Source: Eledone cirrhosa
Lineage: Eukaryota
Reading direction: 5' to 3'
Assembly: GCA_964016885.1 (NCBI GenBank)
Contig: OZ024740.1
Location: forward strand, 244,466,001-244,530,000
DNA length: 64,000 nt
The notes beneath the pieces were generated by a model. The model was not told where the DNA came from. It saw only the letters and a program-made list of their open reading frames with translations, and did not search any database. Every line of letters begins with the position of its first letter. Within the stretch, counting starts at the first letter, position 1. Of the stretch, positions 13,370 through 15,419 are shown piece by piece. The position numbers and the translations under genes are program-made.

Positions 13370-13668
13370 ATTAAATGATTTGAAAATAACTTTGATAATT
13401 GTGTAATTTCTATATATATATATATATAATATATTTAGAAACACACAGATACATGCGGACACACACATATATACATGAATGCATCCGCACCCAACTGTGA
13501 GTTAAGGGTGCCAACTTCACCGATGTTGCTCAATGAATGACCGGGACAGACCAATTCAGTTTGAACCAGACTGAACCAGTATCAGAGTTAAAAATACATT
13601 ATGAAGAGAGAAGAAACATTTAGATATAATTAGTAATAAAATGTATCATACCTAAACTGTTCCTAAAT

Positions 13669-13756
13669 TCCTCGACTACGTAGTTTCGTGGCATAAACAA
13701 AAACAGTATATCAAAGATATAGAGTCCTTGCGAGGTCTGCCGACTTATCAAGAGGA
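13669..13756 (-). ncRNA. Type I hammerhead ribozyme, U3-A8 core variant with extended stem II
   Basis: Minus strand: TCCTC-TTGATAA-GTcGGCA...TGCCAC-GAAA-CTACGTAG-TC-GAGGA, with palindromic stem III and GUC triplet. Confidence 0.75.
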
Positions 13757-14878
13757 TACCTCATTTTACTAGTCTCAAGAACGCGTCTACATGACGTGAG
13801 AAAGAATCCCAAAAGGCGGAGGGGGAGATAGTCACGCGATATAACGGTCGAGAAACAGAGCTAAGCCTCTTATAACCACGAAGAAAATACCACAGAGGCG
13901 GAGGGGGTATTCATATCGAGGCCGTAGAAGAGGTAGTGAAGAAGGCGAGAAGTATGAGTAATGGAAGCTTTCCAGTTGTCCCCACACTTCAAAGATTGCT
14001 CGACCAGAGGGAGTTATTAATATATTTAGAAACACACAGATACATGCGGACACACACATATATACATGAATGCATCCGCACCCAACTGTGAGTTAAGGGT
14101 GCCAACTTCACCGATGTTGCTCAATGAATGACCGGGACAGACCAATTCAGTTTGAACCAGACTGAACCAGTATCAGAGTTAAAAATACATTATGAAGAGA
14201 GAAGAAACATTTAGATATAATTAGTAATAAAATGTATCATACCTAAACTGTTCCTAAATTCCTCGACTACGTAGTTTCGTGGCATAAACAAAAACAGTAT
14301 ATCAAAGATCTCGCAAGGACTCTATATCTTTGATATACTGTTTTTGTTTATGCCACGAAACTACGTAGTCGAGGAATTTAGGAACAGTTTAGGTATGATA
14401 CATTTTATTACTAATTATATCTAAATGTTTCTTCTCTCTTCATAATGTATTTTTAACTCTGATACTGGTTCAGTCTGGTTCAAACTGAATTGGTCTGTCC
14501 CGGTCATTCATTGAGCAACATCGGTGAAGTTGGCACCCTTAACTCACAGTTGGGTGCGGATGCATTCATGTATATATGTGTGTGTCCGCATGTATCTGTG
14601 TGTTTCTAAATATATTAATAACTCCCTCTGGTCGAGCAATCTTTGAAGTGTGGGGACAACTGGAAAGCTTCCATTACTCATACTTCTCGCCTTCTTCACT
14701 ACCTCTTCTACGGCCTCGATATGAATACCCCCTCCGCCTCCGTGGTATTTTCTTCGTGGTTATAAGAGGCTTAGCTCTGTTTCTCGACCGTTATATCGCG
14801 TGACTATCTCCCCCTCCGCCTTTTGGGATTCTTTCTCACGTCATGTAGACGCGTTCTTGAGACTAGTAAAATGAGGTA

Positions 14879-14966
14879 TCCTCTTGATAAGTCGGCAGAC
14901 CTCGCAAGGACTCTATATCTTTGATATACTGTTTTTGTTTATGCCACGAAACTACGTAGTCGAGGA
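14879..14966 (+). ncRNA. Type I hammerhead ribozyme, U3-A8 core variant (inverted copy)
   Basis: Same motif as 13669-13756 on the plus strand: TCCTC-TTGATAA...GAAA-CTACGTAG-TC-GAGGA. Confidence 0.75.
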
Positions 14967-15419
14967 ATTTAGGAACAGTTTAGGTATGATACATTTTATT
15001 ACTAATTATATCTAAATGTTTCTTCTCTCTTCATAATGTATATATATATATATATATATATATATATATATGTGTGTGTGTATATATATATATATATATA
15101 TATATATATATATATATATATATATATATATATATAAGCAGAAGGGATATTCAATTTGTTGGTAATTTTTTATAACTGATTCAGAGCACTCGACAAGTTT
15201 TCTGGAGTATAATATTCAATGATATATATATATATATATATATATATATTTATATATATATATATATATATATATATATATATATATATATATATATATA
15301 TATATTTATATATATATATATATATATATATTTATATATATATATTTATATATATATATAAGTATATATGTATATATAATATATATATTTATATATATAT
15401 ATATATTTATATATATATA

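Follow-up and report, generated by a model that had tools for sequence, protein, structure and literature searches.

Two groups of mobile elements come closest to the repeat described here. With the metazoan non-LTR retrozymes, as Cervera and de la Pena (2020, PMC7229834) and Li et al. (bioRxiv 10.64898/2026.07.22.740005) describe them, it shares tandem units that do not code for protein and contain a single type I hammerhead, the lack of LTR features, and co-occurrence with Penelope-like elements (PLEs); its unit of 591 bp falls within the range of 51–972 bp reported by Li et al., where most families have seven units or fewer. The canonical retrozyme hammerhead, however, is replaced here by a minimal PLE-type U3-A8 motif with a long stem II, and dispersed partial tandems, fixed 3′ sites, a (TA)n target and fold-backs pairing two different ends (called A and B below) are absent from the retrozyme descriptions that these two sources give. 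The 591-bp family further differs from metazoan retrozymes in that it is known here from genomic DNA and that no pLTR homology was found in the PLE loci examined. That retrozyme circles serve as template for reverse transcription is a standing hypothesis (Discussion of PMC7229834), while the mechanism of retrozyme mobilisation is called open in bioRxiv 10.64898/2026.07.22.740005. The plant-type LTR retrozyme, with a type III hammerhead in LTRs around a unique core, is different again; here the hammerhead is of type I and the whole element is the repeat.

The second group are the EN+ PLEs of the Neptune/Nematis type (described in PMC8557442, PMC3846280 and PMC11167929), which show the same partial tandems, head-to-head inverted 5′-truncated arm and “tail” at one end, the same AT-rich or (TA)n targets, two internal start sites of reverse transcription (RT), microhomology junctions, and a minimal hammerhead with a palindromic loop 3. 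In contrast to them, the 591-bp element has no RT or GIY-YIG ORF, its repeat unit is the whole element, and its tail measures about 165 nt instead of 30–40 nt; both of its start sites end in a TA-like match to the target, whereas the start site of the anole PLE is not homologous to the DNA that is cut. According to PMC11167929, the PLE protein cuts both strands of AT-rich DNA and starts RT at two internal sites; ribozyme mutants of the anole PLE insert normally, and uncleaved RNA is the main template. That an inverted pLTR pair has its tail at one end, that RT has two start sites and both strands are cut, and that retrozymes and PLEs are linked is already in print, and the tandem and inverted structure of PLE insertions is called undefined in PMC8557442. 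Non-autonomous Chlamys elements such as MRC1 (same source) are also similar in being PLE-derived and in forming multicopy head-to-tail insertions; however, the Chlamys clade is described there as lacking canonical hammerheads and its non-autonomous members as generally resembling the 3′ end of their partner, whereas a hammerhead motif is present here and no homology to a partner was found in the loci searched (see below).

The window, that is, the whole stretch of 64,000 nt of Eledone cirrhosa DNA that was analysed, contains two head-to-head arms of the 591-bp unit (Table 1), in which the period is exact over 296 and 145 nt by self-comparison. An earlier note had read the locus as a fold-back of a non-coding monomer in partial tandem in both arms, which is what is found (883 + 736 nt); it had also called the arms almost identical on account of LRLCG versus LRLRG in their translations, and this goes back to a single differing base (13894 vs. 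14741), a C>T change at a CpG on a haplotype otherwise common to both arms. Among the ORFs of at least 40 aa that overlap the locus none exceeds 86 aa, four ORFs of the unit gave no Pfam match below E 0.06, and the RT plus GIY-YIG ORF by which an autonomous PLE is recognised is not present in the 591-bp element. The monomer, numbered from the base after the GUC (1 = 14371, 591 = 14961), is predicted to fold better than shuffled sequences (z −6.5, 0/100 as good), with hairpins ahead of both 3′ end sites in which covariation is weak (2/74 pairs); the isolated 106-nt ribozyme region folds no better than shuffles (z −0.65). Next to the locus lies a second fold-back (12449-12725 + 13137-13413) with a hammerhead motif of canonical core (cleavage at −12497) and a C3-C4 variant of it at +13365; its right end shares the TA tract that holds the 591-bp element.

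Table 1. Coordinates of the features discussed; positions refer to the window unless a locus is named
Feature	Position	Strand	Remarks
Left (TA)n target tract	13410..13426	.	doubles as 3′ end of the neighbouring hammerhead-bearing fold-back
Left arm	13427..14309	-	883 nt, 1.49 units; 3′ end = site B (monomer +247), 5′ end = monomer 547
Complete hammerhead motif, left arm	13669..13756	-	cleavage after 13674
Truncated hammerhead, left arm	14260..14309	-	3′ half only; arm starts at monomer 547
5′-5′ (head-to-head) junction	14306..14311	.	4-nt microhomology/overlap within palindrome AGATCT
Right arm	14306..15041	+	736 nt, 1.25 units; 5′ end = monomer 527, 3′ end = site A (monomer +80)
Truncated hammerhead, right arm	14306..14375	+	retains the GUC at 14370 and the 3′ half, lacks the core; arm begins at monomer 527
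One full monomer, cleavage site to cleavage site	14371..14961	+	591 nt
Segment between sites A and B	14451..14617	+	~165 nt; equivalent of the Penelope “tail”
Complete minimal type I hammerhead motif, right arm	14879..14966	+	GUC ends at 14961
Right (TA)n target tract	15042..15071	.	
Neptune-like PLE with 938-aa ORF	L061 4809-7622	-	further loci L232-L261

The ribozyme was identified by hand from its helices and its own conservation, as Rfam gave no hammerhead match at the gathering score or at E ≤ 10, only hairpin look-alikes. It is composed of a 5-bp stem I (UCCUC/GAGGA), the core UUGAUAA (U3-A8), a long stem II, GAAA, and a stem III of 2 bp closed by the palindromic loop UACGUA. As for the one hammerhead per unit that had been claimed, the type I motif stands, but each arm has only one complete copy, the junction-side copies being without the 5′ strand of stem I and the core. 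The idea that this locus releases monomers by cleavage at successive ribozymes fares poorly for the same reason: with one complete ribozyme per arm the locus is probably a product and not a source. Two consecutive complete ribozymes, which is what Li et al. (bioRxiv 10.64898/2026.07.22.740005) take as the least number in an active element, are absent here and present at other loci (e.g. L124, L107), and judged by such sequence features the family as a whole appears to work like a non-LTR retrozyme.

Both halves of the motif are invariant in eight aligned copies that are 82–100% identical; for most of these eight the 3′ half was itself the word used for selection, the 5′ half was not. Among the core positions listed, covered by some 195–213 unit copies, the bulged base 523 is the sole common variant. 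The predicted probability of stem I is close to 0 in the circular and the linear fold alike, so that activity would need a dimer or help by a protein; between two molecules the loop-3 palindromes are predicted to form a 10-bp dimer helix (−12.9 kcal/mol). The predicted folding fits cleavage in multimers and silence in the monomer, and it equally fits a weak ribozyme. Several of these points have been described or argued for PLE hammerheads in PMC4209133, namely the U3-A8 core (known from Schistosoma PLEs), a palindromic loop allowing folding as a dimer, silence of the monomer with cleavage in multimers, and poor cleavage of the minimal hammerheads in vitro; among nine Xenopus retrozyme dimers one was cleaved (bioRxiv 10.64898/2026.07.22.740005). 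An invariant hairpin, GAGG-UAU-CCUC (monomer 503-513, window 14873-14883), competes with stem I and may be an off switch of the ribozyme. Elsewhere in the genome there are at least 421 short-stem U3-A8 hammerhead motifs (control 16) in several families, that is, this variant of the core is common here. Five hammerhead motifs of other families lie in the window (+11418, +20116, −16148, −37657 and −41592), each 49–184 nt upstream of a (TA)n tract, and the many inverted repeats of the window may be fold-backs of the PLE type.

The family is large and young: a 22-mer across the cleavage site has 7,531 exact matches in the 3.0-Gb genome (control 0), whose repeats appear similar to those of octopus genomes; the full-unit matches listed, among the 40 of 723 candidates that were scored, are 98–100% identical. 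Public collections gave one metagenome match with unrelated surroundings, and viral contigs gave no match to the element. Among the sequencing runs listed, none was identified as RNA, and six of unspecified kind, under four organism labels, contained 73–84% of the words searched. Copies were studied at 150 loci, 50 of them covering the first 100 listed 22-mer matches, 60 picked by a site A end and 40 by similarity to the full unit; arms shorter than 25 nt, low-identity matches confined to the CA/TG-rich part and a duplicate in L093 were left out. In the first 110 loci, the 3′ ends of 177 arms fall at site A (monomer 76-84, +80 from the cleavage site) in 98 cases, at site B (241-254, +245 to +250) in 68 and elsewhere in 11, and 153 of the 166 ends at A or B are flanked by TA (87/98 at A, 66/68 at B); a tail-to-tail pair was seen once in these loci. 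Permuted ends, as expected in the earlier note, are not what is seen: the outer ends lie at two fixed sites, variation is confined to the 5′ ends, and random circular permutation of the ends is thereby ruled out. As to copies that are simply the terminal repeat of a longer coding PLE, the case that the note had named against itself, no coding element is attached to the copies examined; copying of a young, non-coding, hammerhead-bearing unit beyond one lap is supported. Arms measure 0.1–4.9 units (mean 634 nt, longest 2,907 nt), and 17 of 56 arms picked by their A end span two cleavage sites. In the 72 single-arm rows, some of which have a diverged partner arm, TA lies within 6 nt of the 5′ end in 48 and within 40 nt in 11 more; the other 13 have other flanks, among which no coding sequence recurs.

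The 3′ ends are not combined at random. The fold-back is real and family-wide: the 150 loci contain 80 head-to-head pairs, of which 71 join one arm ending at A to one ending at B, one joins two A ends, none joins two B ends and eight have an irregular end; the sole AA pair is an old copy (84–86%), and leaving aside the loci picked for an A end the ratio is 40 to 1 (p = 2e-11). The arms overlap at the junction by 1–5 nt in 51 of 75 cases. In 22 of the 71 AB pairs, among them this locus, each arm is too short to have served as template for its partner; snap-back self-priming is excluded for these, and hence as the general route, and the remaining 49 are compatible with it. In L1 twin priming, each of the two target strands supplies a primer, which results in an inverted 5′ arm; the second site is variable and the arms cover different parts of one linear RNA. 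Here, in contrast, the second site is fixed, the arms overlap, and 58 of the 71 B arms run past site A, which rules out that the B arm halts there as it would in twin priming; in 12 of the 71 fold-backs both arms exceed one unit. The pairing of A with B further speaks against the view that the inverted arm of PLEs (PMC3846280) generally arises by self-priming.

What was copied can be asked from the cleavage site. In these and the variant counts, arms below 90% identity were left out (158 of 177 used), as were 10 of L001-L030 that repeat a place. While 212 passages of the site were counted, three of 158 arms end no more than 1 nt from it (1.05 expected), and indels within 10 nt of it number zero; where arms were picked by their A end, 80 nt away, 52 of 56 pass it. 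Genome-wide, 2,544 A ends and 4,814 internal A sites stand against the 7,531 words across the cleavage site, a rough agreement between patterns that differ in length; the count of the B-end pattern was not used, as overlapping matches inflate it. Reading through the site without a scar means that the template is continuous across it, and both linear cleaved monomers as the main template and end-to-end jumps at the cleavage site are ruled out by the read-through and the lack of indels. The 5′ stops are not uniform (28 at monomer 361-420, 15.5 expected), and the most frequent single position accounts for five of 221. A recurrent stop zone lies at monomer 176-181 (10/221 stops), at the base of the hairpin before site B.

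Variants show how many templates were involved. Units of one arm diverge by 0.42%, the two arms of a locus by 0.35% and different loci by 2.2%. A common variant is present in both arms in 140 cases and in one arm in 17 (ten of the 17 in two three-segment loci), and it is in all units of an arm in 221 cases as compared to 21; the 73 loci with full coverage have 40 haplotypes. Where a position has at least three copies, a rare variant is in all of them in 15 cases, in some in 6 and in one in 86. Private to one of 148 loci are 185 variants, 35 of which are in all copies and 150 are not shared within the locus; the unshared ones are expected from later mutation, yet they limit the test for one template. 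L124 has four private variants in all 7–8 units of both arms. Thus, the units and both arms of one insertion share one haplotype, private variants included. In 30 fold-backs, the partner arm is always closer than the median, but in only 11 of them is no other sequence nearer. For most loci it is ruled out that a fold-back came from two unrelated RNAs; in L161 and L211 there is a third segment with another haplotype. With 100 ribozymes to 33 A ends, the number of ribozymes per A end in the first 54 Mb of C1 is 3.0; genome-wide it is 2.96, which implies no large master array.

The reading that we prefer, with moderate confidence, is that the locus is one insertion in which a PLE endonuclease and RT copied a probably circular RNA monomer from both cut strands; the argument is carried by the rule that pairs A with B ends, by (TA)n as the target and by the sharing of haplotypes. 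That the family is a non-autonomous repeat mobilised by PLEs is very probable and that one monomer was copied repeatedly is likely, while for the covalent circle as template the balance tips only somewhat in its favour. From the structural and sequence rules observed, we infer transcription, cleavage, ligation, the enzyme and the circle as follows. Copies with two ribozymes would be transcribed and then cut as a hammerhead dimer by way of the palindromic stem III loop; the monomer would be ligated and, since stem I is predicted not to form, remain stable. A pair of PLE proteins would bind the RNA, cut both strands of the (TA)n target and prime one cDNA at A and the other at B, each of which sites would match the target with the AU-rich stretch in which it ends. 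Each RT would circle the template with strand displacement and stop at scattered points, and the two cDNA ends would be joined by 1–5 nt of microhomology to give a fold-back, or a single cDNA would be joined to the TA tract to give a single arm.

The main competitor is a pseudo-circle, in which the RT re-anneals at each lap to the downstream repeat of the same linear, terminally redundant, uncleaved transcript, slightly longer than one unit; with identical priming, it predicts the same DNA products as a circle. Homology-guided jumps would be free of scars and keep the haplotype, and autonomous PLEs also make partial tandems, uncleaved RNA being their main template in vitro (PMC11167929). A TATA-like word at monomer 391 together with two GC-rich repeats forms a putative internal promoter, and stops are enriched at 361-420, although no sharp pile-up is seen at any single position. 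The invariance of both ribozyme halves across subfamilies of 82–100% identity would be left unexplained, unless cleavage serves another step, and the fold-backs in which both arms exceed one unit speak against it too; we consider this route unlikely, but not so much so that it could be neglected. Improbable is a template made by long uncleaved read-through of tandem source arrays, in which homogeneity would come from the arrays and from gene conversion at the DNA level once the copies are inserted. On uncleaved RNA the cleavage site would be no obstacle, gene conversion can act between inverted as well as tandem copies, and the six rare variants found in some units only would be in line with this; however, arrays would shorten with every generation, the ribozyme-to-A-end ratios give no sign of long master arrays, haplotypes are numerous and rare variants mostly all-or-one, and conversion of DNA mutations would not give the A>G excess among shared variants described below.

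Two further explanations concern the nature of the copies themselves. The unit might be the pLTR of an autonomous PLE so far not found, the loci being 5′-truncated copies of it, and architecture, hammerhead type and target are indeed those of PLE termini; moreover, the GIY-YIG candidates examined are 50 of 10,597, and in L163 an arm is joined to a 2.1-kb stretch of a PLE ORF. In arms of up to 2,907 nt, however, what lies upstream of a unit is another unit and not an ORF; of the 72 single-arm rows, 59 reach a TA tract no more than 40 nt from their 5′ end, and no coding sequence recurs in the flanks of the remaining 13. We therefore rate this explanation as very improbable. That the fold-back is a chimera of sequencing or assembly can practically be dismissed: such chimeras do occur in long-read data, but the arms are unequal, have different fixed end sites and unique flanks, and 71 loci with differing junctions all follow this rule.

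Which PLE would supply the protein to the circular template favoured here was approached by a search for GIY-YIG domains, which gave 10,597 candidates, 150 of them listed; in the 50 loci from these that were examined no homology to the monomer was found, bar one nested copy, nor was any found in 20 loci with other hammerheads, so the search by homology yielded no partner. The L061/L070 family has a 938-aa RT plus GIY-YIG ORF with a CxxxxCxxC motif ahead of the nuclease, on which grounds it is Neptune/Nematis-like as described in PMC8557442. It is young (99%), has a U3-A8 hammerhead motif and ends on (TA)n at +80 and +143 from the cleavage site. At 30 loci picked by the distal end, nine inverted arms end at the proximal site, none at the distal and one internally, with five further arms cut by the edge of the locus; in a second PLE family, four inverted arms pass the reference end and one uses the same end. 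As the two-site pairing recurs in the Neptune-like PLE, the rule looks like a property of PLE machinery. This young family is the best candidate partner. The partnership is tentative, because the monomer has no detectable DNA similarity to it (261 and 264 of 300 shuffles scored as well), because the tail of this family measures 63 nt as compared to 165 nt, and because U3-A8 motifs are common in the genome. The motif TATCTnnnTGTTTCT stands ahead of both sites A and B and was not found in the PLE sequences; the local alignment of A with B is marginal, 4.7% of window pairs being as good.

Some loci combine the element with PLE sequence. In L163 (2109-4210) a retrozyme arm is joined by 5 nt of microhomology to the 2.1-kb stretch of a PLE ORF in the same direction, with TA on both outer ends, a candidate for a template switch or for a nested insertion with deletion, and in L097 an arm abuts a short PLE fold-back. 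Neither was counted as proof of a partner, being one case each and both fitting nested insertion. L087 (5822-6852) has a 310-bp tandem like a hammerhead-bearing repeat, in whose units the exact core was not found.

The value of the family lies in making two open mechanistic questions testable. It offers thousands of young natural products that obey sharp rules: each DNA strand has its own one of two start sites, an insertion has a single haplotype, and copying does not stop at the cleavage site. The two-site rule is common to an autonomous PLE of the same genome, and with an RNA of 591 nt, (TA)n DNA as the target and a PLE protein that occurs naturally, the choice between circle and linear RNA comes within reach of the bench. 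A literature search over titles and abstract openings found no description of this family (supplements, Repbase and Dfam may list it), no counted A/B pairing and no haplotype phasing as evidence for a circular template.

A possible mark of the RNA stage is seen in the variants. On the RNA strand, A>G makes up nine of the 35 shared private variants and five of the 150 unshared (A>G vs. T>C, Fisher p = 0.007); in the shared class alone its excess over T>C is weak (p = 0.08, 0.17 and 0.013 for variants in at most one, two and three loci), and polarised common variants number 16 A>G to 7 T>C (p = 0.003). No ADAR-like preference for neighbouring bases was seen, and pairing gave p = 0.10. The excess fits editing and an error bias of the RT alike and is a lead; that two PLE RTs, one at each fixed site and each primed by one strand of the cut (TA)n target, followed each other around one RNA circle at the same time, and that A-to-I edits of this circle were written into every unit of both arms, is a speculative extension that we rate as rather doubtful. 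If it were true, the fold-backs would be the first genomic record of circRNA-templated retrotransposition in the literature searched, and would explain in general how Penelope elements come by their tail and inverted arm.

Several other features of the window were recorded. A degenerate reading frame without Pfam match (30165-30974, +) resembles, by its motif, a PLE-type RT, and the endonuclease/RT reading frames at 59716-61596 (−) and 47380-48163 (+) are presumably LINE-like. A tRNA-like Rfam match (16615-16674, −, 32.3 bits) lies inside a dispersed repeat and is likely the head of a tRNA-derived SINE.
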